This document shows, piece by piece, positions 1,729 through 41,031 of a stretch of DNA of 64,000 nt; position 1 is the stretch's first letter; every line of letters begins with the position of its first letter. The notes under the pieces were generated by a model that saw nothing but the letters and a program-made list of their open reading frames with translations, was not told the origin of the DNA and ran no database searches. Position numbers and translations under genes: made by a program. Origin of the DNA: a virus; IMG/VR virus record IMGVR_UViG_3300028558_000018, positions 1 to 64,000 of that record; one strand, given 5' to 3'.

Positions 1729-2943
1729 ATGCTAAAAGCATACAAATATCGGCTTTACCCCACGAAAGATCAAGAAATTCTTTTAGCGAAACATTTCGGC
1801 TGCGCTCGGTGGATGTATAATTATGGTTTGGAAGAAAAGATAAAAGCATATGAAAAGAAAGAGAAGTTAAGCTGTTTCGATATAATTAATCGTGTCGTAG
1901 TGATGAAAGAAAGTCAAGAGTTTTCTTGGTTAAACGAGGTAAATTCCCAAAGCCTTCAAATGGCGGCGCGAAACTTGGATAATGCTTTTCAAAGATTTTT
2001 CAAAGAAAAGAAAGGGTTTCCAAAATTTAAAAACAAAAAATCTAATCGTCATTCTTTTCAATGTTCCCAGCACGTAAGAGCGGATTTTTCCTTGGGTTAT
2101 CTACATCTTCCCAAATTTATTAAAGAAAATCAAATTAAAATTAAATTTCATCGTAAATTCGAAGGGAAAATTAAAACTACAACCATATCTAAAACTCCAT
2201 CCGGTAAATATTTCGCCTCTATCGTAGTGGAAACTCCTGATAAAATTCCCGAATTAAAACTAATTAATGAATCTACCACTATTGGCATAGACACCGGAAT
2301 TAAAACGTTTTTAACTCTTTCTAATAGAACTACTTTTGAAAACAATAAATATTTAAAACAATCACTTAAAAAACTTAAAAAACTAAACCGCACCCATTCT
2401 CGAAAGAAAAATGGAAGTGCAAACAAAGAAAAATCGCGAATTAAACTAGCAAAACAACACGAGAAAGTTACGAATCAACGAAACGATTATATTCATAAAA
2501 CAACTTCAAAAATTGTAAACGATAACCAAGTTAGCGCAATTTGCATTGAAGATTTGAATATTAAAGGAATGGTCAAAGAAAAGAATAAAAACTTCAATAG
2601 AGCTTTATCTGACGTAAGTTTGGGTAAATTCTATGAAGTTTTAAAATACAAATGCGAATGGAAAGGAATTAATTTGATTAAAATTGGCCGATTTGAGGCG
2701 AGTTCAAAAACTTGTTCCAATGACGGTTACGTTAATCATAATTTAACCCTTGCTGATCGCAATTGGGTATGTCCGATTTGTGGGACCAACCATGATCGCG
2801 ACTTAAACGCGGCAATCAATATTAAGAAATTCGGCTTGCTATCAGGCAAGCCACTACCGATGGAATGTCGGGAAGTCAAGCCTGTGGAGACTCGCATTAG
2901 TGGGTCTGCGAAGCAGGAAATTTTACCCCTTCGGGTGAGGTAA
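1729..2943 (+). CDS. tnpB: IS200/IS605-family RNA-guided endonuclease TnpB
   Basis: N-terminal KAYKYRLYPT HTH; RuvC-I GIDTGIK, RuvC-II IEDLNI, zinc finger CSNDG/CPICG, RuvC-III DRDLNAAINI; catalytic D-E-D intact. Confidence 0.95.
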   Translation: MLKAYKYRLYPTKDQEILLAKHFGCARWMYNYGLEEKIKAYEKKEKLSCFDIINRVVVMKESQEFSWLNEVNSQSLQMAARNLDNAFQRFFKEKKGFPKFKNKKSNRHSFQCSQHVRADFSLGYLHLPKFIKENQIKIKFHRKFEGKIKTTTISKTPSGKYFASIVVETPDKIPELKLINESTTIGIDTGIKTFLTLSNRTTFENNKYLKQSLKKLKKLNRTHSRKKNGSANKEKSRIKLAKQHEKVTNQRNDYIHKTTSKIVNDNQVSAICIEDLNIKGMVKEKNKNFNRALSDVSLGKFYEVLKYKCEWKGINLIKIGRFEASSKTCSNDGYVNHNLTLADRNWVCPICGTNHDRDLNAAINIKKFGLLSGKPLPMECREVKPVETRISGSAKQEILPLRVR

Positions 2944-2968
2944 TTCACCAACCCAAAATTGTTCACCG
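2855..2968 (+). ncRNA. TnpB omega-RNA (reRNA) scaffold, IS right end (TTCAC 2944-2948) and ~20-nt guide from 2949
   Basis: typical scaffold ccgatggaatgtcgggaagtcaagcctgtggag...gaagcaggaa, terminal hairpin ttacc-ccttcggg-tga-ggtaa, then TTCAC; 5' boundary approximate. Confidence 0.7.
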
Positions 2969-3309
2969 GAAAGAATATCCGCCCGTTCTTTAATTTTTTC
3001 AATCAAATAACCTTGCTCCGACTCTTCCAATATCTCCTTGGCCGCGCACCAAAGATATTCCACTCGCTGAATTGGGCTAACCTCCTTTAATTGGCCCGTT
3101 TTGCGAATTTCTAATTGAAGGTAGCTCACTCGGGTAAAAACATTTGCAATTTCTAATTCTAAATTAGTGCGTTCTTGATAAGAAGTCGCAATTTTGTCGT
3201 TAACCCAATTACTTTGAATTTCCAGTTTGCGCTGTTTTAATTGGGCTAATTCAAGAGTTTTTTCGCGTAGTTCGTCCTTTAATTGCTTTAATTTTTCTTT
3301 ATTATTCAT
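2923..3309 (-). CDS. coiled-coil hypothetical protein; C-terminus now supplied by the IS right end
   Basis: last codons (GELPHPKG*) lie inside the right-end hairpin. Confidence 0.7.
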   Translation of the reverse strand: MNNKEKLKQLKDELREKTLELAQLKQRKLEIQSNWVNDKIATSYQERTNLELEIANVFTRVSYLQLEIRKTGQLKEVSPIQRVEYLWCAAKEILEESEQGYLIEKIKERADILSGEQFWVGELPHPKG

Positions 3310-3475
3310 TTTGTTTCTTTGATTAATTTTAATTCGCCGAAAATATTAGTGCCATTAATATACCAAAGGGCTAGAATTTTATTATCATAAATTGCGCGCT
3401 CTTTTTTATTTTTAGTAATAAACTCCCCATTGGAACCTATCCAATATTTGTTATTAATTGTTTTAATGGAATATT

Positions 3476-3841
3476 TCATGAGTTTAAATAAGGTTTTAGC
3501 ACTTCTTCAATACGATACTTGATGAACTCTGCGTGACAAGCTCTAAATGTGGGTGCGCCTGCACACCAGCATAGCAAACTTACGCTTTTCCCTTTGTAAA
3601 CTTTCCGCGCAATTTTCAATGTTTCTTGTTTCATCGGGCCATCACGCTCCCAATCGGCGTCATAATCGGCTTTGTATTTTGAGAGAACTTCGGCGCGTTT
3701 AATATCGTCGCGATAATCTTCTAAAATATATTTATTTCCCAATATAGGATTAACTCTATCCACATGAATGACTTCCGTATCTTTTCTCGGCGGCGCGGCC
3801 CCGCTTCTTTTATTGCCGATATAGATATTACCAAATTTCAT
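3476..3841 (-). CDS. DUF4326-like protein
   Basis: VDRVNPILGNKY and LLCWCAG..CHAEFI motifs. Confidence 0.75.
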   Translation of the reverse strand: MKFGNIYIGNKRSGAAPPRKDTEVIHVDRVNPILGNKYILEDYRDDIKRAEVLSKYKADYDADWERDGPMKQETLKIARKVYKGKSVSLLCWCAGAPTFRACHAEFIKYRIEEVLKPYLNS

Positions 3842-4199
3842 AGATTTTTAATCCCCTCATATTTTAACACTCTATCAGCGTAACTCCTCATTCCAATAAC
3901 GTAATCTAAAGGAGTCAAATAACTTTCTCTTTGGGGAGGGTCAAATTCCCAATATGGATTTTTCGCGCCCATAATACGTTTTTGATCATTATTTAATTTT
4001 TGAGAAATCCAAAATTCGCATTCATCCCAATCCGATAAATTATTAGGGTCTAGTTCCATAATTATTTAATTTTAATAATTCTAATTCGTGTTTTTGAATT
4101 CTTTGAACGGCGAAAATAATATATTGTGGAGGAATAATAAGGGTATTTTTAGCTAATTGGCTCCAAATAGAGACTAAATGCAAATCATATTCTATTTGA

Positions 4200-4817
4200 T
4201 TATTCATTTTTAATTAATTCCACGCGACCCTCACCTAAAAACTCAATATAATCCAATTCAGGATATAAATCTTCAAATCCTTGGGATGTATGGGGATAAA
4301 ATAATCCTATAAATGAACAATTAAAAATTTTACTCTCATGCCAAGAAGATTTAATTGGGCCAATATCCTTGCTCCACCCACCTTGGCAATATCTGCTCCC
4401 ATAATTATGAAACCCTTGAGATTGCTCTAATTCAAATTTATAATTATTTTTTGCAATTTCGTAAAAAGCCATCATATTTGCCTCGTCTCCCAACATATCA
4501 ATATAATCTCCCTCATCCATCCAATTGCTAACTGAATGTTTATGATTATCACATTCGGGGCTAATTCCCGTTACGCTGTTTAAAATCAATAATTCTTCTT
4601 CTAAAAACCCGTCTTTGCTTACCTTAATCTCTTCTAATTTAATATTTTTATCTAAACGCGGGGAATAAATAATTTGAGATTCATTGTCGATAAAATCATA
4701 ACCCCCCTTGCTGTCTGAAAAACAAAATTCATCCTCGGAGAGATTCGGCGGGCGACCATCTTCCATAAATAGCCCCTCGGAAAGAAGGGCGACTCTAACA
4801 TATACGGGGATACTCAT
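4200..4817 (-). CDS. hypothetical acidic protein
   Basis: 205-aa ORF in operon context. Confidence 0.65.
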   Translation of the reverse strand: MSIPVYVRVALLSEGLFMEDGRPPNLSEDEFCFSDSKGGYDFIDNESQIIYSPRLDKNIKLEEIKVSKDGFLEEELLILNSVTGISPECDNHKHSVSNWMDEGDYIDMLGDEANMMAFYEIAKNNYKFELEQSQGFHNYGSRYCQGGWSKDIGPIKSSWHESKIFNCSFIGLFYPHTSQGFEDLYPELDYIEFLGEGRVELIKNE

Positions 4818-5789
4818 AATTATTTAAATATATTCAATTACCCATTCTTGAGACGGGCGAACAATTGCTTTCCCATAAAACCTCCCGCCCCATGATTTTT
4901 CCCAGAAAATTTGCGTATGGTCTAAAAATCTCCCAATATGTTTTTGGGGATTAATAAAATACACCTTCCCCTTTTTACTTAAATTAGATTTTGTGCGAGA
5001 CGTATCCCCATTTTCATGTTTGATTCTAACTTCTCTACATGGAATATAGTAAAGCGCGGTAATTGGGTCTTTTAGCCGGAAGGGTTTAACATTTTTCATG
5101 GGTTATTTTTACCTTTTTATACTCTACTCCTTCCGCGCCATCATTAATAGCCTCTTCATAAGCCCCATCAAGCATTTTAGTAACCAAAGTCTCTCCGGTT
5201 TCAGATTCGTGATTTAACGCACGAAGAACGTCTTTCGCCCAATGGTTTTCATTAATAATTTTAAACTTTTTATCATCCAGAGGCCCGCCGTTCTTTTCTT
5301 TGGAAGCGAATGCGAGGACGGAAATCCCTACGGTGATTACTAATTGATCATTTTCGATTCTAGTATTTAACGCTAAATCTTTATTTTTCTTTGTTTTCAT
5401 AATGGATAATATCTACGGTTTTGGCTCTCTTTAACTTTATATTCATTAACAATTTGTTCAATTACAATTTTCGCCGCGTTTAATGTTGCAAAAGAGCCAT
5501 CTTCGTGACAAATTTCTAATGGCGAATAACATTCTACTACCCATCCTTCGAAGGATAAAATTTGCTCGGTTTCTTTATTCATAACAATTATTTAAATTCT
5601 TAATATTTACCCAAAATCTAGAATCTTCACCTCCATTGTCAAACCACACGCCGCATTTTGTTACCCTTCTAACATAATGTTCTAATAGCTCATTGCTTCC
5701 ATCCCATGCGGAATTTATAGAGTAGATGGAGATAATTTTCCCCTCTAATTTTTTAAAACTAAATAACGTGCGGCGAATTTTATTTTGGC

Positions 5790-6164
5790 TCATAAATTAT
5801 CATTTTTCAAAGGATTCAGTCTATCAGCAATCATCCCTCCATGCTCAAAAATATTCCCCACAACTTTCGGCCCGCCGCCCGCGAACCAAATAGTATCGAG
5901 TTGATAATCCGTGCCCGCTGCGAAAAAGCCACTCCCGCGATAAATGATTGCACGATTTTCTCCATTTACATTGACAATATCGCCCTCGTAAATGTCCACT
6001 TTGTTGCTGTCTTGGCGTCCGGTAAATTGTTGAATAGCAAAATTTTCTCTATTTTCTACTTTAGCAAAAAACATTAATTCGCCGCCATTACCACATTCAA
6101 GATAATCTGGGTTATCAAATTCTTGGCCGTTCCAGACGCGAAATTTAAATGTTCTTTGTTTCAT
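5790..6164 (-). CDS. YopX family protein (copy 1)
   Basis: KFRVW...QQFTGRQDSNKVDIYEGDIV...VVGNIFE. Confidence 0.85.
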   Translation of the reverse strand: MKQRTFKFRVWNGQEFDNPDYLECGNGGELMFFAKVENRENFAIQQFTGRQDSNKVDIYEGDIVNVNGENRAIIYRGSGFFAAGTDYQLDTIWFAGGGPKVVGNIFEHGGMIADRLNPLKNDNL

Positions 6165-6440
6165 AAATTTTCTTTAACCCGCTTTTGACCAATTTACCGA
6201 TTTGTTCTTCTCTAATATAATCTTCGTAATCAATTTCTAAAGATTCTAATAGATTGCCCAAATCTTCGTTATCTTCTTTCACCAGTGTTTGCTTATAATC
6301 ATCAATATCTCCATTATGATAATCCACGTTCCATGTTGCGTAATATAACTTGTTCTTTTTTAGCTCCCAATGTTTTAAATAAAAATTAGAATCATTCTTT
6401 TTTAAGAATTTAATTAATTTAATTACTTTGGTTAATTTTG

Positions 6441-6899
6441 TCATAATTTCTTATATTTGTAGAAACCTGTTCCCGTGACTTCTTCGTGCAATTGCCTCAT
6501 CGTGCCCAATAGAGAATTTTTCTCCGCATCTGTCAAGGCCATGTTTGCAGCTAATTTTAGTCCAAAATCAGAACCTTTTCGCGCCGCAATAATTTCTTCA
6601 TCATTTTTAAACGGGTTCGGCGCGTTAAATGCATGATTATATCTCACGCACATTGATGCTAACAAATCAATCGGGGCTTTTTTAGGAATAACCACCATTG
6701 AGTTAATATTAGGGGTAATTTCACCCTTTTTAATCTCACTATCAATGTATTCTTCGACTAACTGTGCGACAAATCTGCAACTCGCCTCACCATTTTGAGA
6801 CTTGTGCAACCAATCTAATAATTGAGATTGATTCTCAATAACGTTATTCTTATTACGCTCAATTAATTTTTGCTTTTTATCCATCACAGACCCCTCCAA
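6441..6899 (-). CDS. hypothetical protein
   Basis: ORF in tightly packed operon. Confidence 0.6.
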   Translation of the reverse strand: MEGSVMDKKQKLIERNKNNVIENQSQLLDWLHKSQNGEASCRFVAQLVEEYIDSEIKKGEITPNINSMVVIPKKAPIDLLASMCVRYNHAFNAPNPFKNDEEIIAARKGSDFGLKLAANMALTDAEKNSLLGTMRQLHEEVTGTGFYKYKKL

Positions 6900-8139
6900 G
6901 AAGATTTTACTACTTCATTCATCGCCTCAAATTGGGATTTAAGTTTAACGGGGAATAAATTATAAACTAATTCGCAAAAAGTAACAATTAAATATTCAAT
7001 TACAATTAACGTATATGCAATTGGGATAATTAGCGCAATAATCGGTTTACGAAGATATGGTTCTTTAATTTCTGAGATATTTTGTGGTGTCATAATGATG
7101 TTATTCTACGCAAATTGTTTCTTTTTCAAATGTTGCTTGGGCCGCTTTGCATCGCGCTTCGAAATTTTTCCCATCTAGCTCTTTTTGCTTACGCTTTTCA
7201 ATTACTTCCCGCGCTTTCTCCTCCGAAGTTACAAACCCGCGCCAAGTATCAAAACCATCAACCAAATCCCACCATAGAAAATATTTTTTCATTTGAGGGG
7301 TGTAAACTGGTGAGGCGTTCAATAGCCATTTTTGGATTCGAAATTTGCAACATTTATTCATAAATTATTTTAAAATTTTCCATTTCATTTCGCGGCAACA
7401 TTCAACAGCTTGACGCTTTGTGGGAAACGAGTCCAGCCAAAAACCATTCCATTTCGTGGGAAGAAAAACATCATAAGGCAAAATAGACCATTGCCAAATT
7501 CCCGCGTCATCATTATGATAAAATGTTACTCCTTCGTAAACTTTATCGCGAAGTAATTGGGCAAGTTCAATACATTCTTTATAGCACGTAGGACAGCTTC
7601 TCTTTGTCCGCCGCGCCCAATTTGAAGATTTAATGGATTTTTGTTTAATTTTCATAAATTATTTTCTAAATACTAAGTAATAAATGGGAGAAACGGTTAT
7701 CACGCAGCCAATTATTCCACCGATTATCGCCGATTCAATTGATTCTCCGCGTAGCCAAGCTGAGAAAGCACAATAAACTGTTGTTAGAATAATTAGTAAT
7801 ACTAAAATCCTCATTAGTTTAATCATGTTTGTTCTTGGTTGAATTGCGCGCCACGTTTAATTAAATTGTTCAAGCGATTGCTCAAATAATAAATCTCGCT
7901 AGACAACGCTTCTATTTGAGAATCTTTATCCAGCGTCCTAAACCCACATTCTACATAACCAATTTTCTCTTCTAGTTCTCTTGCATATTTCCATGCGGAA
8001 TCTTCATCTTGAAAAATTTCAGTATTAACGGGAGGCTCATAATAATTATCGTCCGCGCCTCCATGCCAAACGTGATAAAAATCCTGCCAGAACATTAAGT
8101 AAATTTGATTATTCGCGGACATTTGTAAATTATTGATTA

Positions 8140-9552: not shown

Positions 9553-9894
9553 TCAAGAACTTTCTAATTTTTCTTTAAAACAAATCTTTGAAATTTCCCC
9601 AAACAATTTCGGCCCAGAGCAAGTTTGAAGATAAATTCTATTAAGATTAATAATTTCCTCAATATCAAATTGATCCGTGCGACCTTTAATTGAGCGAATT
9701 ATGCTAAATTTACGATTATTTTTAATAATTATAAATTCTTCTTTTCCCCTTGCATCAAATAAAGCGCGCTTTCTCGCGGAATCGGGACAATTATTAGCAT
9801 TAGCTTTTTGTTTTTCTCTATGAGTGCCACCATCTTGCCAAGAGCGTTTTAAACCGGCGATGATTCTAATTTTGGCTTTTTGATTTAGCCGCAT
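9553..9894 (-). CDS. basic hypothetical protein
   Basis: 113-aa ORF. Confidence 0.6.
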   Translation of the reverse strand: MRLNQKAKIRIIAGLKRSWQDGGTHREKQKANANNCPDSARKRALFDARGKEEFIIIKNNRKFSIIRSIKGRTDQFDIEEIINLNRIYLQTCSGPKLFGEISKICFKEKLESS

Positions 9895-9914: not shown

Positions 9915-10178
9915 CTACTTGTTGGGCAGAGAAGGCGGAAGCGGTAGCGGCATCCAGTGGGTCATCCGGTTATTCGTCGGAATCCACCCCGCGCCGTGCC
10001 GCCAGATTCCATAGTCTTTATCCCACGTGATTACATACTGGCAGCGGTTCTCTGCGCTGTATGCGAGGATTCGCGTGCCGTCTTTCGGGGCGGTCGTTAT
10101 CGGAGCCCAACCATGCGTTACAGACAATGCCGCGCACGGTTCCGGCGAGACTTCGGGAGTTGGTAGAGAGCGCGTCAT
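9915..10178 (-). CDS. DUF551-like phage protein in cassette 1 (first ~25 aa encoded by attC1)
   Basis: WAPITTAPKDGTRIL...THWMPLPLPP signature. Confidence 0.8.
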   Translation of the reverse strand: MTRSLPTPEVSPEPCAALSVTHGWAPITTAPKDGTRILAYSAENRCQYVITWDKDYGIWRHGAGWIPTNNRMTHWMPLPLPPSLPNK

Positions 10179-10199
10179 GTCTGATCTGTTTTGTTAGGC
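10105..10199 (+). repeat. attC site 1 (95 bp)
   Basis: R'' GCCCAAC, 5-nt spacer, L'' GTTACAGA (extra base), stem CAATGCCGCGC/GCGCGTCATG, L' TCTGATC, 6-nt spacer, R' GTTAGGC. Confidence 0.85.
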
Positions 10200-10399
10200 G
10201 GGGCGCTGTCCTCGAAATATGCGATGCGCTCAATCCAGTGCGCATGAAGTCGCGGGTGTTTCTTTATCATGAAAACGAGCGGGTTCTCATCTTCGGGGAT
10301 TTCCTGCTCCTCGCCATAGAGGGCGTGCAGAATCTCGCCCGCGAGCCATTCGCGGTGGGTATAGGTCTTGTCGAGGGGCCAAATCATTCCGGCGTTCAT
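10175..10399 (-). CDS. hypothetical protein in cassette 2
   Basis: 74-aa GC-rich ORF between the attC sites; stop TGA overlaps ATG of next ORF inside attC1. Confidence 0.7.
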   Translation of the reverse strand: MNAGMIWPLDKTYTHREWLAGEILHALYGEEQEIPEDENPLVFMIKKHPRLHAHWIERIAYFEDSAPPNKTDQT

Positions 10400-10403
10400 A
10401 GCG

Positions 10404-10508
10404 TTAAAATTCGGAGCCTAACCAAGCGCTAGACCCAACGCTCGGGGCTTGGTCCGCGCTCTGTCCCGAGCGCGTGTCACCTCGGGTGTTAGGCTTTAAA
10501 AATTTCAT
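10404..10508 (-). CDS. 34-aa leader peptide reading through attC2 (MKFLKPNTRGDTRSGQSADQAPSVGSSAWLGSEF)
   Basis: ATG 35 nt downstream of TTGACG (10538-10543); stop 4 nt before the cassette-2 ATG. Confidence 0.5.
   Translation of the reverse strand: MKFLKPNTRGDTRSGQSADQAPSVGSSAWLGSEF
10416..10494 (+). repeat. attC site 2 (79 bp)
   Basis: R'' GCCTAAC, 5-nt spacer, L'' GCTAGACC, perfect stem CGCTCGGG/CCCGAGCG, L' TGTCACC, 6-nt spacer, R' GTTAGGC. Confidence 0.85.
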
Positions 10509-10545
10509 ACCCAAATAAAACTAAAATGTTCTTCTTTCGTCAAGT

Positions 10546-11415
10546 TCAAATATTAAACTTCTTTCTAAACTCTTCTATCTCATTGGTATCCATCATGTTG
10601 AAATCCTTTTTTTGCGGCAGCGCAATTTCAATTTTATCCTCATTAAAAAATTGCAACAATTTGCTCCTTATTCGTTCCGCCGCTTTGTTTCCTATGGAAA
10701 AATTTTCAACTTCATTATTTGTGCTAATTAGGATGCGATTGGGATTAATGCGAATTAAATAAGAGAGGAGTTTGCTGGATATTTCCACTCCGAATAAACA
10801 TAATGTGTTATTTATTCCACATTCAGATAAATACAATATATCGGCTGGACCTTCGGTGATTATTACTGTGCGAGAACATTCTATTGAGGTCAAATCGCCA
10901 CCAAAAATCCATAAACTCTTATTTCCTAAATGACGCCATTTCGGACCATAGCCGTCATTATTGAGTTTTCTACCTGTGAATCCTATAATTTTGTCTCGTT
11001 GTTCGTTAAAAATAGGTAATACCGCCCTTGAACGCATTTGGCCCTTAAGAGCCACGCCCATTTGAAATTTTTCGCACGTTTTATTAGATATTCCGCGAGA
11101 GTTAAAATAATCGTGATTTTTGATTAAGCCTTTGAGGATATTTAAATCCCAGCTTTCGGGGAGAGTGATTTTCGGCTCTGGAATTTGAGCAATAGTCTCC
11201 TCGTTAGATTCTGTTCCAATTAATTGTAAAATTCTCCCATTGTGCTCTTTGGAATCATCAACAATACAATTAAATTTACCGCTTGCGAAAACTCGCAAAT
11301 GGTTCTTGGACAATGCGTTGCGCCCATTTTCCAAACATGCCGGACAACATCCAATATACCCGCCGTCACTCTGGAGCATTTTTCCCTCTAATTTATCTAG
11401 ATCAATAATATTCAT
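10546..11415 (-). CDS. DNA primase (zinc-binding + TOPRIM)
   Basis: CPAC...H..C N-terminus, IIGFTGR, IITEGPAD TOPRIM motif, KDFN. Confidence 0.85.
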   Translation of the reverse strand: MNIIDLDKLEGKMLQSDGGYIGCCPACLENGRNALSKNHLRVFASGKFNCIVDDSKEHNGRILQLIGTESNEETIAQIPEPKITLPESWDLNILKGLIKNHDYFNSRGISNKTCEKFQMGVALKGQMRSRAVLPIFNEQRDKIIGFTGRKLNNDGYGPKWRHLGNKSLWIFGGDLTSIECSRTVIITEGPADILYLSECGINNTLCLFGVEISSKLLSYLIRINPNRILISTNNEVENFSIGNKAAERIRSKLLQFFNEDKIEIALPQKKDFNMMDTNEIEEFRKKFNI

Positions 11416-12809
11416 TTAATTTCGTCTCGGCTATTCTTAGAATTGCCAAACGGTTCAAATTTTTCTCCATCTGGATTGCTTGGGCCGGTCCATTGTTGAA
11501 CGGGATACTCAACCAACGAATTATCTTTAATATATTGATTATACGCATCTAAAGCCTCTTTCTCGGTCCCAAAGTTACCAATTTCTTTAAAAACCCCTCC
11601 CCTTGGGCGTAAAAACGCCTGCCATCTTTGACTCCTTTTTATAAAGGATATCCATTTATATTTTGAATATTTCTTCTTTATTTTCAAAAATCTTAAAAAG
11701 GCATCCTTATCCATAAAAACTTCTACGGGGTTAGGAAAAAATAAATCCCCATAGATTTCTCTCCCAAAATAATTATAAGCATTAATTGCCGCGTTTTTAT
11801 CGGAATAATTTCCCACATATTTATTTCCAACCATACACGCCCATCCCGCGCCATTCTTTTTAATGCCCCTCACTTCGTATTGCCTTTTTCTATCTGGGCA
11901 GAAATTAGCTTTAATCGCCGCTAGTCTTAATTCTTCAGTTCTATTCTCATATTTATTATCTTCGGCACGTTGTAAAAGCCACAAATATTTATTATATTTC
12001 CTATCTAGCCCGATTTTGTCAATTTCTCGGTTTTGATAGATATATTTACAGAATTTGAAAACATTATCCCTCGCCGTCAAAACTATAGAAGAACTCTTTC
12101 CCAATTCATTTATACATTTTTGAATATTATATTTAGTTATATCCAAAGAATTAAACAGTTCGATGACAAAGCTCCAATCATAATCATATGAAGATGCTAT
12201 TGAGATGCCATATCCGTAGGATTCATCATTAATACACCCATCTCCGTCAACCAGCCCGCGCCACCAATAATGTTTTAAATAATTTGGAATTTTATCGAGA
12301 ATTTTTTGCGCGCTCACCTTCGATTTTATATGATGATCTGTAGATAATAGCCATTCTTTAACCTCGCTATTATATGACCTCATAGAAATCGCATTTTTAT
12401 GCTTCTTGGACTTTGCCTTCCTTTGGTAAATTGACCATTTGCCAATTTTATCAATAATACCTTCTTTTATATTGTTATAATCTTCTTCGGCTATGCAAAA
12501 AGAAAAACACCAACCGATATCTCTGGCGCAACCGTCAGCCCAAAAATAACCTAAAAAATAAGCTACTTCAGGGGAAGTTATGTTTAAAAATTGTTCTACT
12601 TTAACGCCTGCCTGTTCATTCGTATAACGACGCCCCTTGGATGCCACTAACCATTTTTCTTCCTTAGTTAAAACTAAATTATACTCTTTAAATATTTTTG
12701 TAATAAACCCCGCCGATCTTTTTAGATGTTCACAACAAAATGTATTTCCATTTTTATAGTTTTCTAAAATAAAATCCAATTCGTCCTTTGTCAATGTGCT
12801 AGTCCTCAT
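11412..12809 (-). CDS. free-standing LAGLIDADG homing endonuclease with C-terminal AP2-like domains
   Basis: AYFLGYFWADG and WWRGLVDGDGCI motifs; two GNY/F..EKEA..AYN AP2-like repeats. Confidence 0.8.
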   Translation of the reverse strand: MRTSTLTKDELDFILENYKNGNTFCCEHLKRSAGFITKIFKEYNLVLTKEEKWLVASKGRRYTNEQAGVKVEQFLNITSPEVAYFLGYFWADGCARDIGWCFSFCIAEEDYNNIKEGIIDKIGKWSIYQRKAKSKKHKNAISMRSYNSEVKEWLLSTDHHIKSKVSAQKILDKIPNYLKHYWWRGLVDGDGCINDESYGYGISIASSYDYDWSFVIELFNSLDITKYNIQKCINELGKSSSIVLTARDNVFKFCKYIYQNREIDKIGLDRKYNKYLWLLQRAEDNKYENRTEELRLAAIKANFCPDRKRQYEVRGIKKNGAGWACMVGNKYVGNYSDKNAAINAYNYFGREIYGDLFFPNPVEVFMDKDAFLRFLKIKKKYSKYKWISFIKRSQRWQAFLRPRGGVFKEIGNFGTEKEALDAYNQYIKDNSLVEYPVQQWTGPSNPDGEKFEPFGNSKNSRDEIK

Positions 12810-39835: not shown

Positions 39836-41031
39836 AACGGTTTAATAAAATTTAATCCTTTTAGATGCTTATTCTTTTCTTTAATCCCCTTTATGTAATT
39901 CCACGCAGTAACAATTACATCTTTATTCTCCTCGCTCTCCAAAATTTCCTTGCCGACAATCGGAATTCCAACTTGAGGAATAAATTTCCCCTGACGTAGC
40001 GGAGATTCATCTACCACGTAGCTAAATCTAATATCACTCATATTGTTAAACCAAGTATTGGCCCTTCCGCTTGCTCCATAGGCGATATTATTTGGATTTT
40101 TCAACATTTTTTGCGCCACGGGATTTGCATAACGTGCTTTATAATGAACGTTGAAATATTTGAATTTTAGTTTATCAAATTCAATATCTTTAGTGTTGTC
40201 GTAAATGAATTTCTTTTTAGAAAAAAACACCCTTAGACTACCTCCGTGATTCTTAATTTTTAGATTAAAAATCGGGAAAAGCCCTACTAAAGAACAGACC
40301 TTCACAAGCGAATGCAGCGAATAATTAATTTTATGCTCATGATAAATAAAATCCCATGCTTTATCGTCAAAAATCGCGTCCAAATCGCCTACTTCGACAC
40401 AAAATAGACCATTTGGTTTCAACGCGGCGAAAATTCCTTCAAAAACAGGCTTTAAATCGCTAATATGAGCGAGGCAATTCGCCGCGAAAAGATGGTCAAC
40501 AGTGGATTCCAAGTTATTTTGCTTAACAAAATCAAGATTAAATCCCTCGTTAAACAATTTAACATGGCTGAATTTGGGATTTTTACTGGCGCGTTTTGCC
40601 ACATCAGAGGGGTCAACTGCGATAATATTCCAATTTTTGGGCAAATGTTGAATTAGTGGAAACGAATTCGCTCCAATTTCTAAGAACGTAAACCCATCTT
40701 TATCTCCATTTGCTTGAATTAATCTATCTGCGTATTCCTTAAAATGAGCAACTAAAGCGGGAATTGAACTTGAATCATAATTATACTTCTTAAAAAGAAC
40801 TTCATCGGAAATATTCTCTCTAACTTGCACCGCGCCGCAATTTTGACATTGAACCAAAGTGAGGGGAAACAGCTCTGCGTTTTTGGCCTCCTCTAAAGAC
40901 TCCGCGAAGTGTCCGGCAAGGGGCACGGGTTTTTCAAACTCAAAAACCGGAATGAGGCTTTCGCCGTGGCAGCAACGACATTGAGTAATATCTGTATAAT
41001 TTTTGCTAATAGGCATAATTAACGAAACCAA
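39832..41031 (-). CDS. NDP-sugar C3-methyltransferase (NovU/TcaB9-like)
   Basis: CRCC/CQNC zinc site, LEIGAN, NCLAH, YHEH, HGGSLR, AYGASGR, VTAWNY. Confidence 0.85.
   Translation of the reverse strand: MVSLIMPISKNYTDITQCRCCHGESLIPVFEFEKPVPLAGHFAESLEEAKNAELFPLTLVQCQNCGAVQVRENISDEVLFKKYNYDSSSIPALVAHFKEYADRLIQANGDKDGFTFLEIGANSFPLIQHLPKNWNIIAVDPSDVAKRASKNPKFSHVKLFNEGFNLDFVKQNNLESTVDHLFAANCLAHISDLKPVFEGIFAALKPNGLFCVEVGDLDAIFDDKAWDFIYHEHKINYSLHSLVKVCSLVGLFPIFNLKIKNHGGSLRVFFSKKKFIYDNTKDIEFDKLKFKYFNVHYKARYANPVAQKMLKNPNNIAYGASGRANTWFNNMSDIRFSYVVDESPLRQGKFIPQVGIPIVGKEILESEENKDVIVTAWNYIKGIKEKNKHLKGLNFIKPF

Follow-up and report, generated by a model that had tools for sequence, protein, structure and literature searches.

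A 567-bp piece of inserted DNA just downstream of a primase gene in a 144-kb phage genome is probably a two-cassette integron array that lacks an integrase, carries attC sites of an Opitutaceae type, was inserted in trans, and has its genes on the attC bottom strand, with translation restarting at an L box between the first cassette gene to be read (ORF2) and the second (ORF1). Integrons are usually described as bacterial systems in which promoterless genes lie upstream of their attC sites, with one promoter beside the integrase gene. The phage sequence is an IMG/VR record, a metagenome-assembled contig, of which we analyzed a window of 64,000 nucleotides together with matches in the full genome; the insert and its neighboring genes all read on the minus strand.

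The insert (9922..10488) has a GC content of 58% in a phage genome of 37%. Directly upstream lies the gene for a DnaG-type phage primase (10546..11415; Pfam DNAG_N and Toprim), and downstream the next phage gene, encoding a 113-aa protein with no known family match (9553..9894). In relatives of the primase the insert is absent, and the next gene follows 3 to 37 nt after the primase gene. Both edges of the insert are AA|C crossover points, the bottom-strand counterpart of the G|TT at which IntI recombines attC, in cores at 10494-10488 and 9927-9921, and the reading frames are unbroken across both joins. The junction between cassette 1 and phage DNA carries, as read from the sequence, a terminal half-site, GCCCAAC (9921..9927), at which ORF1 borrows its final codon and stop (AAG TAG) from the phage. 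Excision of 9922-10488 in silico leaves one GTTAGGC site, ATGAAATTTTTAAAGCCTAACAAGTAG, encoding MKFLKPNK*, while excision of cassette 2 alone leaves MKFLKPNKTDQT*, which overlaps the ORF1 ATG; both outcomes are those that the initial annotation had given. There are 2 GTTAGGC heptamers in 144 kb, the restored site among them, against 9,718 GWT sites.

These junctions bear on two other origins for the insert. Since the sequence was assembled from a metagenome, it might contain a misjoin of bacterial or phage reads of high GC content. Such a chimera is most improbable: the phage DNA that flanks the 567-bp block has one orientation, so that two misjoins would be required, each exactly at a recombination core; the reading frames run on across both; and an independent relative from two samples (L160/L161) also has sites of this family. 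Recombination between phages during co-infection, with the attC sites acting as mere short patches of homology and no insertion by an integrase, would resemble the shuffling of modules for which the promoter/stem-loop cassettes of T4-type phages provide a likeness. In its favor, attC1 matches at 93 of 95 positions a site of L004, a phage contig rich in GC (L004:645-739), although both flanking genes differ, the homologous DUF551 genes of the window and of L002 each follow a different attC site, and the related low-GC phage L160 has family sites at a different position; illegitimate or homologous recombination at GTTRRRY repeats was also raised by Qi et al. 2023 (PMC9892861). Against it, each junction coincides precisely with the AA|C of an RYYYAAC core, which is what site-specific recombination would produce; the target as reconstructed is a complete GTTAGGC core, of the rarity given above; and the DNA on the two sides is of the usual AT-rich phage kind and shares no homology. 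We regard this origin as very unlikely.

No tyrosine recombinase (PF00589) was matched in the 144-kb phage genome, and with its two attC sites and no integrase in that genome the insert is a CALIN as defined by Cury et al. 2016 and applied in PMC9892861, namely two or more attC sites and no integron integrase close by. Outside 9922-10488 the genome has no GC island of attC-like character. Two more GC islands were considered as further cassettes and rejected: the one at 98.4-99.7 kb is the Gly/Ala-rich part of a large gene, and the one at 105.5-106.3 kb, which lacks cores, consists of one GC-rich gene that has no relative in 101 Opitutaceae genomes and thus gives no host link. A blastn search of 50,697 phage records for close relatives with an empty site gave no hit, IMG/VR had no match to the primase peptides or to the precise 21-nt pattern of the site, and those primase relatives of 45-65% identity for which DNA was available lack the region. 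Because no empty-site relative was found, the target site is reconstructed rather than observed, and the dedicated landing site envisaged in the initial annotation is not supported.

The two sites themselves are real attC sites and not inverted repeats that arose by chance. R1, a covariance model derived from 42 members of the attC family, matches the window at attC1 and attC2 only, and on the minus strand only, and inverted imperfect cores (RYYYAAC ... GTTRRRY) are present in both; the proposal of two attC sites was therefore correct. attC2 (10416..10494, 79 nt), whose coding strand runs GCCTAAC ... GTTAGGC and is the attC bottom strand, scores 49.6 bits (E = 3.8e-9) and folds as DNA at -22.2 kcal/mol (z = -3.3). 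attC1 (10105..10199, 95 nt), spaced 217 nt from it, scores 69.6 bits and holds both the ORF2 stop and the ORF1 start; its parts are, in order, GCCTAAC, an A-rich 9-nt spacer (AAAACAGAT), the L box CAGACATGA, a variable stem, CATTGTCTG, a spacer and GTTGGGC. The consensus fold of the 42 members has a 6-bp R box, 9-nt spacers, an 8-bp L box and a bulge at column 83. In the family alignment the extrahelical bulged base of the L box is on the 3' arm and the spacers are unpaired, and compensatory changes occur in 10 of the 20 pairs of the variable stem. attC1 fits this fold exactly; attC2 is more divergent, with a branched fold. The Rfam search returned no attC family, and its sole match, a sub-threshold CRISPR-DR32 at 9846-9870 (E = 0.03), was taken as chance.

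The attC sites of the insert are members of the family that Opitutaceae (Verrucomicrobiota) use in their chromosomal integrons. The sites' 3' motif is present at 24 genome loci, nearly all of them in Opitutaceae/Verrucomicrobiota MAGs, and at more than 119 metagenome loci; a search of IMG/VR with the attC motif gave no match. R1 matches are found in 48 of 101 Opitutaceae genomes, and 4 of 5 of the motif-bearing genomes encode an integron integrase above the TIGR02249 cut-off (376-425 bits). One of the arrays (G002:C25) has at least 15 attC sites after intI, all on the intI strand, and arrays adjoin the 5' end of intI on the same strand in this contig as well as in G005:C159 and G005:C90. Opitutaceae are a candidate host or donor for this 144-kb phage, which is otherwise an orphan; the attC family alone points to that host, and such a gap in GC content, 37% in the phage against 55-65% in the host, would be unusual.

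Three ORFs follow one another through the insert. A leader of 34 aa (10404..10508; MKFLKPNTRGD...WLGSEF*) begins in phage DNA, crosses the crossover point, traverses attC2 and is closed by cassette DNA, its TAA (10406-10404) lying 4 nt upstream of the ORF2 ATG (10399). ORF2 (10175..10399, 74 aa) starts 16 nt past the 3' core of attC2, after an AT-rich leader, and ends ...APPNKTDQT* at the L-box TGA of attC1. This TGA overlaps the ORF1 ATG as ATGA (10178-10175), and ORF1 (9915..10178, 87 aa) is read through the rest of attC1 to end ...PPSLPNK*. Each of the three traverses a GCCYAAC core as CCY-AAC, that is, Pro-Asn. The initial annotation had described this chain of starts, stops and Pro-Asn crossings, and all of it holds on the minus strand. 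The stop/start adjacency, both at the ATGA and between the leader TAA and the ORF2 ATG, is typical of termination-reinitiation.

The codon model favors the coding strand of ORF2 (29.4 versus 13.4 bits). ORF2 has no Pfam or PHROG family and no word-based homolog, and its sole relative, found by exhaustive search, is a protein from a phage-like operon (P0004, 38% identical, E = 2.4e-4). ORF1 carries a phage-family DUF551 / phrog_924 domain, with Pfam DUF551 covering residues 31-82 (E = 6.5e-6) and phrog_924 residues 22-83, and it has a relative that is 73% identical (P0002). Its homology starts at residue 22; attC1 encodes the stretch before that, from residue 1 up to about 21, with MTRSLPTPEVSPEPCAALSVTHGWAP as the predicted attC1-encoded peptide. 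A further protein (P0003) shares this attC-encoded N-terminus and has an unrelated body. ORF1 has no in-frame start codon outside attC1, and none from the 3' core to residue 72; on the sequence alone, its translation can only be initiated within attC1. In the predicted RNA fold the L-box AUG is base-paired in the L-box stem and preceded by the unpaired A-rich spacer. ORF1 could alternatively start at a TTG that lies in frame within the 3' L box (GCA TTG TCT GTA), six codons before a conserved Trp.

How the insert is transcribed is a separate matter. A phage promoter had been proposed at a TTGACG hexamer 2 nt past the primase stop codon (10538..10543); the hexamer is present as the -35 element of that proposal, but it lacks an acceptable -10. 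A sigma-70 scan called no minus-strand site at 10543-10510, the candidate -10 in TTGACG-N17-TTTTAT has no A at position 2, and among the 23 minus-strand TTGACG hexamers in the window the only one with a TAnnnT partner is not that at 10543-10538. A promoter here would also put the transcript start at about the leader ATG. The terminator scan called no terminator between the primase and the insert, and transcription would most likely occur by read-through from the phage replication operon.

Shine-Dalgarno (SD) motifs precede 6 of 89 phage genes, a frequency equal to background. Translation of the cassettes without an RBS of their own, as put forward in the initial annotation, consequently says nothing specific about them; the leader ATG, for instance, is preceded by TTTGGGT with no SD-type region. 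The candidate host is SD-poor like the phage, and local structure should therefore govern initiation.

The attC-first layout of the window recurs in four further phage-like contigs, and comparison with the bacterial arrays of the same family separates the two. Cassette genes lie on the model strand, i.e., the attC bottom strand, in the window, L004, L002, L086 and L139, whereas bacterial cassettes code opposite the model strand in 65 of 76 cases, and by 76 to 20 among the confident calls of a codon model that performs poorly on short ORFs, leaving 199 of 295 cassettes ambiguous, and is usable in aggregate. Bacterial T5orf172 and Glyoxalase cassettes, identified by Pfam, show the same opposite-strand coding. 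ORF1 and ORF2 accordingly depart from the canonical cassette, a promoterless ORF on the attC top strand with its own attC after it, to which the bacterial arrays of the family conform. One long candidate bottom-strand cassette gene, in L156, was rejected as an IS110-family transposase. ORFs extend beyond the crossover at 19 of 26 phage-type junctions versus 10 of 76 bacterial ones (p = 3e-8), and ATG starts inside attC account for 10 of 24 versus 3 of 72 (p = 3e-5), both of which support the reading in the initial annotation. The bacterial ORFs are self-contained, with a stop before the attC in 57 of 76 and an ATG 0-30 nt past the preceding site in 59 of 72.

The reading frame at the core was tallied for 26 junctions in five phage-like contigs, with frames counted for 25. 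The upstream ORF enters in the x-Asn frame at 17 of the 25, in the TAA-containing frame at 6 (5 stop on the core TAA and 1 reads through) and in the third frame at 2, and Pro-Asn was therefore rejected as a strict rule. The bias goes in the direction that the initial annotation had predicted. It is significant if equal use of the three frames is expected (p = 7e-4), but no longer so when the comparison is with the empirical open-frame background at bacterial junctions (p = 0.2), and the counts are not independent, since several junctions share ancestry (PPSLPN ends).

This background is one of several observations that would fit a different account, in which the cassettes are real and their chaining is incidental. 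The array would then have been carried along passively, the leader would be an ORF that arose by chance where GC-rich DNA has few stops, and the ATGA and Pro-Asn would be the outcome of conserved attC sequence and chance stop positions, with ORF1 starting by itself. Frames open through an entire attC are fairly common by chance (29, 75 and 151 of 389 sites in the three frames), so that the significance of the leader is uncertain, although comparable short attC-spanning ORFs occur in L086 (30 aa, with an ATGA overlap) and L004 (42 aa). AT-rich leaders past the 3' core carry stops in several frames, and site-crossing ORFs consequently end near the next ATG. Among 399 bacterial sites, where coding is on the opposite strand, 115 have the L-box ATG (29%) and 43 have ATGA (11%); ATGA is thus a family-wide variant of the L box, and the idea that it evolved in the phage was rejected. 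Since the phage does not use SD motifs, the unpaired A-rich spacer may suffice for initiation, and a start of ORF1 at the TTG, or independently at the L-box AUG via that spacer, would make coupling unnecessary. Three results weigh against incidental chaining: the excess of crossover passages and attC-internal starts at phage-type junctions, the predicted pairing of the AUG in the L-box stem, and the fate of the L-box ATG frame, which opens into a gene of at least 85 aa in every phage-type case and reaches at least 50 codons in 4 of 106 bacterial sites. On balance we consider incidental chaining possible but rather doubtful.

In the reading we prefer, the insert would be a two-cassette CALIN placed by a host integron integrase acting in trans at the core-like GTTAGGC after the primase gene, and its cassettes would belong to a phage-associated class with the gene on the attC bottom strand, so that each attC precedes its gene on the mRNA. 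Such a gene would span its cassette from core to core and pass the recombination point, with a stop supplied by whatever DNA follows. ORF2 would start at its own AUG after the short AT-rich leader, and ORF1 most likely at the L-box AUG overlapping the ORF2 stop (AUGA), with the ribosome that terminates ORF2 opening the L-box helix and then restarting at ORF1. An ...PN..DQT*/ATGA junction is also present in L086, between unrelated genes. The stop/start geometry would come from conserved parts of the family, a 7-nt core and a 9-nt spacer followed by CAGACATGA, and it appears to be a by-product that phage cassettes exploit, not a purpose-built module. The suggestion that attC sites are arranged so that inserted cassettes are translated is accordingly not upheld: ATG and ATGA belong to the conserved L box of the whole family, at the frequencies in bacterial sites given above, and are at most co-opted. 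To read the attC-first layout as a purpose-built translation device would be the weaker interpretation.

A broader proposal can be put forward only tentatively, and we hold it to be less probable than not. Phages of integron-bearing bacteria, here Opitutaceae, might keep a pool of mirror-image cassettes in which attC has been co-opted as a 5' translation unit with a frame interface of core and L box (entry in the x-Asn frame, a stop at or near the L-box UGA, a restart at the L-box AUG). Host or phage-borne IntI could shuffle such cassettes into any order and they would still be translated in a phage operon, even across very different GC contents; L086 would be a complete integron of this kind with its own divergent IntI. 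If phages do carry mirror-image cassettes whose genes rely on the recombination site for their start and stop codons, attC sites would be under translational as well as recombinational constraint, small accessory genes could be swapped by phages in plug-and-play fashion via the host integrase, and such arrays would be misread by annotation pipelines that look for genes on the top strand of attC or cut N-termini off there.

The nearest known systems are the phage CALINs described by Qi, Rajabal, Ghaly, Tetu and Gillings 2023 (PMC9892861). They share with the insert at least 2 attC sites, small cassettes, a phage without IntI, boundaries of the GTTRRRY type and a phage that may be virulent. Unlike the insert, those arrays run in the same direction that is "most typical of bacterial arrays", with some divergent sites, and the study does not report the systematic bottom-strand genes, crossover-spanning ORFs and attC-internal starts present here; the Opitutaceae-type attC family is not among its families. 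Cassette insertion at genome sites other than att sites (attC x attG; Loot et al., bioRxiv 10.1101/2022.09.11.507474) likewise involves an integrase in trans, exchange of the bottom strand, insertion away from attI and the need for a resident promoter for expression, and it would be the most economical route for the phage insert. Its target consensus is only GWT, whereas here the reconstructed target is a complete GTTAGGC core that matches cassette 2's own core. For the phage, it is the junctions alone that point to this reaction.

Short ORFs of attI1 and attC in class 1 integrons were reportedly studied by Hanau-Bercot in 2002 and Jacquier in 2009. Coupling through such ORFs is already known, with ORF-11, ORF-17 and ORF-18 of attI1 and short ORFs within class 1 attC sites reviewed in PMC8876359. 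As in the insert, a short ORF lies over the crossover and takes its stop from the incoming cassette; as predicted for the insert, termination-reinitiation then leads to the next cassette, and class 1 attC hairpins in mRNA block ribosomes unless translated through (PMC8876359), a further probable likeness. The attI1 ORFs, however, serve canonical top-strand cassettes under Pc, whereas the mRNA here is the attC bottom strand, and ORF-11 has an SD-containing initiation region that the leader lacks. The predicted start in the phage is the L box itself, giving an N-terminal extension of 21-40 residues, in contrast to the separate peptide of the attI1 system.

Vibrio VCRs are an example of the homogeneous attC sites of sedentary chromosomal integrons. 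The Opitutaceae integrons are VCR-like in having one lineage-specific attC family, with lengths of 88, 91, 98, 99 and 103 nt, and tens of attC copies per genome next to intI. Their arrays consist of self-contained ORFs on the top strand, of which the phage cassettes, open-ended and on the bottom strand, are the mirror image.

The GC-rich insert in this phage is a two-cassette CALIN (a cluster of attC sites lacking an integron integrase) with Opitutaceae-type attC sites, and its coding orientation is the mirror image of the usual one. The virus record in IMG/VR is 144,389 bp long, of which the window is the first 64 kb, and has 37% GC; between its DnaG-type primase gene (10546-11415, minus strand) and a 113-aa gene (9553-9894, minus strand) lies a minus-strand stretch of 58% GC, the sole attC-like GC island in the genome. 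A 34-aa leader ORF starts at an ATG at 10508, crosses the first hairpin site, and stops 4 nt ahead of the ORF2 ATG (10399). ORF2 (74 aa) ends at a TGA overlapping the ORF1 ATG (ATGA, 10178-10175), and ORF1 (87 aa) continues through the second site to the C-terminus PPSLPNK*, all three minus-strand ORFs reading the GCCYAAC core as Pro-Asn. In silico excision of 9922-10488 (567 bp) restores ATGAAATTTTTAAAGCCTAA joined to CAAGTAG, which encodes MKFLKPNK*. The coordinates, chaining, ATGA overlap, Pro-Asn crossings, and restored mini-ORF described in the initial annotation are thus all correct on the sequence.

ORF1 is a DUF551/phrog_924 protein, and ORF2 has a codon-model score of 29.4 bits on the attC bottom strand versus 13.4. 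A protein 73% identical to ORF1 (P0002) is encoded on a 68.5-kb GC-rich phage-like contig, L002, and another (P0003), beside terminase genes on contig L004, has the same 25-residue N-terminus as ORF1 with an unrelated body; both contigs carry similar sites between small genes. Two other GC-rich stretches of the phage genome lie outside the window. One (G000:C1:105529-106318, L159) holds a minus-strand 173-aa gene of about 65% GC with GC-rich hairpins on its flanks; attC cores are absent, and a search of 101 Opitutaceae genomes gave no relative. The other (G000:C1:98371-99740) reaches 70% GC in a large minus-strand gene with Gly/Ala-rich, GGxGG-like repeats and probably encodes a segment of a structural protein such as a fibre.

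Both sites in the window are true attC sites of integrons and belong to one defined family. Their common 3' motif, GTCTNTARNNNNTGGTTRGGCTCC, has no match in IMG/VR and occurs at 24 loci in species-representative genomes, almost all of them Opitutaceae/Verrucomicrobiota MAGs (Rariglobus, Didemnitutus, Opitutus), often in several copies on one genome contig, as well as in more than 119 metagenome contigs. Four of the five motif-bearing genomes checked have an integron integrase above the TIGR02249 cut-off. The lengths of 191 delimited elements form discrete classes, and an alignment of 42 elements gave the consensus GCCnAAC, 9 nt, CAGACATG, variable stem, CATTGTCTG, 9 nt, GTTGGGC. When folded, this consensus forms an R box, an L box whose 3' arm has a bulged base, and the variable stem, and the spacers stay unpaired. 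Compensatory changes are seen at 10 of the 20 pairs of that stem. A covariance model of the family (R1), which separates the two strands by about 60 bits, finds dense arrays in MAG contigs and matches 48 of the 101 genomes sampled from the Opitutaceae; its only matches in the window are two minus-strand sites, 10105-10199 (69.6 bits) and 10416-10494 (49.6 bits). Rfam contains no corresponding attC family. Its one CRISPR-DR32 match, at 9846-9870 (minus strand) inside the 113-aa gene, is sub-threshold (26 bits, where the gathering score is 48; E = 0.03) and was taken as chance, the repeat array being absent.

In classical integrons, the attC bottom strand is the strand with the polarity of intI. 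In the Opitutaceae-type genome G002 (contig C25), intI lies at 39973-40899 on the minus strand, and at least 15 sites on its 5' side are all on the minus strand; two contigs of a second such genome (G005:C159 and G005:C90) show the same relation. The bulge in the 3' arm agrees with this assignment of the bottom strand. With a codon model trained on long MAG genes, bacterial cassette genes lie on the top strand, opposite the sites' model strand, in 65 of 76 cases, confident calls for bacterial cassettes favor the top strand by 76 to 20, and Pfam places T5orf172 and Glyoxalase cassettes on that strand. The lone long bottom-strand ORF of the bacterial arrays was rejected as a cassette gene: it is an IS110-family transposase gene (Transposase_20/DEDD_Tnp_IS110; L156:7860-8942, in the G002:C25 array) that fills a 2.3-kb "cassette". 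In the window, ORF1 and ORF2 are both on the attC bottom strand, and genes occupy this strand in all five contigs of the phage type (the window, L004, L002, L086, and L139).

L086 and L139 are metagenome contigs in which the layout was found beyond L004 and L002; L139 has 5 to 6 sites. L086 (JGI contig Ga0070682_100000435, 27 kb) carries at 2450-7460, on the minus strand, 11 attC sites and a terminal half-site, an AT-rich gap, and an IntI-like recombinase. All 11 sites are on the strand of this recombinase, and the cassette genes all read toward its gene. Its best full-length family is the integron integrase (TIGR02249; 201 bits, below the 265-bit cut-off), and it has the IntI-specific insertion and 33% identity to the G002 IntI. 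Nearby genes encode a DUF5906 primase-helicase, a PIF1 helicase, and a sigma factor. This part of L086 resembles an integron that is complete though divergent, and its carrier looks to be a phage-like or mobile element.

In L160/L161, a low-GC phage related to that of the window (55% identity between the primases), two sites of this attC family lie downstream of the primase gene, 0.5 kb away, at L160 positions 3113-3223 and 3779-3883, with a convergent gene pair in the cassette between them. Their position differs from that of the window's insert. The first site is read through by an ORF that begins in phage DNA and has the L-box ATG in its frame. In the second, the cores and L box are retained and the variable stem is AT-rich, which would fit adaptation to the base composition of the phage. 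Four further relatives have no such attC sites. Also beside the primase, a 465-aa LAGLIDADG homing-endonuclease gene (11412-12809, minus strand) sits between DnaB helicase and primase in the window, with overlapping stop and start codons. The primase directly follows DnaB in L160, L162, and L163, and different insertions (a TnsA-like gene, a methyltransferase) occupy the junction in L164 and L165. The junction between DnaB and primase seems to attract selfish insertions.

How ORFs meet the sites was tallied at 26 phage-type junctions in the five contigs. The upstream ORF enters the core in the x-Asn frame (G-CCY-AAC) at 17, in the frame containing the core's TAA at 6, and in the third frame at 2, and stops just before the core at 1. 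Because the core spans 7 nt and the spacer 9 nt before CAGAC, ORFs in the x-Asn frame run into the TGA of the L box, where it overlaps with the ATG of that box, and the resulting ...PNxxDQT*/ATGA junction is found in both the window and L086 with unrelated genes on its sides in each. The proposed non-randomness of the Pro-Asn frame holds against a uniform expectation (p = 7e-4, several of the junctions having common ancestry) but not when the background is the observed distribution of long open frames over the full set of 415 junctions (22:38:14; p = 0.2). Chance also leaves frames open across an entire site fairly often (of 389, the counts for the three frames are 29, 75, and 151), so the 34-aa leader alone is not compelling.

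ORFs extend beyond the crossover at 19 of 26 phage-type junctions versus 10 of 76 bacterial ones (p = 3e-8); in the 76 canonical bacterial cassettes, the stop precedes the attC site 57 times, falls within the core 9 times, and is more than 30 nt into the site 10 times. Among 24 downstream genes of the phage type, 10 (including ORF1, P0003, and P0002) start at an attC-internal ATG, versus 3 of 72 bacterial cassettes with their first ATG in the preceding site (p = 3e-5). Another 10 start 9-25 nt past the 3' core after an AT-rich leader, TCCG(A/T-rich)ATG, and at 4 no ATG-initiated ORF of at least 50 codons was found downstream. Bacterial cassettes also seem to begin translation at the site edge, the median first ATG in their arrays (L009, L025, L027, L156, and others) being only about 6 nt past the preceding attC. 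Counting against a purpose-built design, 115 of 399 bacterial sites have an L-box ATG and 43 of 399 an ATGA. Of 106 bacterial sites that have an L-box ATG, 12 leave its frame open to the end of the site and 4 carry it on for at least 50 codons; in every phage-type case that frame enters a gene of at least 85 aa. The proposed translational coupling is plausible, with support as a structural regularity in the five contigs, and it rests on family-wide attC features.

The TTGACG at 10543-10538 (minus strand) is not supported as the phage promoter of the insert. Between 10543 and 10510, a sigma-70 scan called nothing on the minus strand, the hexamer in the -10 position (TTTTAT) is without an A as its second base, and a promoter there would put the transcript start at about the leader ATG. 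Since no terminator lies between primase and insert, read-through transcription is the simplest assumption. Having no RBS of their own, as proposed, would not set the cassettes apart, because Shine-Dalgarno (SD) motifs precede 6 of 89 long phage ORFs, which is background; phage leaders are AT-rich, and local structure should decide initiation. The Opitutaceae loci are likewise SD-poor (6 of 51 long ORFs versus an 11% background, the cassette genes themselves being outside the count). Because ORF1 contains none of the start codons ATG, GTG, and TTG in frame from the 3' core up to residue 72, the DUF551 domain could be made only by initiation inside attC1. RNA folding predicts that the ORF1 AUG is base-paired within the L-box stem and preceded by an A-rich spacer that is unpaired; this would be compatible with termination-reinitiation from ORF2. 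Independent SD-free initiation of ORF1, or its initiation at a TTG in the 3' L box, would also be compatible.

Both insert ends are of the RYYYAAC type, as expected if exchange occurred between AA and C on the coding strand (between G and TT on the top strand). As the phage genome encodes no tyrosine recombinase, an integrase would have had to act in trans. GTTAGGC, the reconstructed target, occurs only twice as a heptamer in the genome, versus 296 GTTRRRY and 9,718 GWT sites, and so looks closer to a full core than to the minimal GWT attG sites described by Loot et al. (bioRxiv 10.1101/2022.09.11.507474). Without the insert, the 144-kb genome has GTTAGGC 2 times on both strands versus about 10 expected from base composition, and GTTGGGC 11 times versus about 6 (a hand estimate from base composition); the GTTAGGC shortfall could reflect avoidance of the commonest core, or chance.

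We found no description in the literature of systematic bottom-strand coding of phage-borne cassettes, of open-ended ORFs across the crossover point, or of translation starting at the L box, with an N-terminal extension encoded by attC as the result. Several components are published: CALINs and even complete integrons in phages (Qi et al. 2023, PMC9892861), off-site insertion by IntI with expression from resident promoters (Loot et al.), and coupling via ORF-11, ORF-17, and ORF-18 of attI1 and via short ORFs in attC sites (reviewed in PMC8876359).
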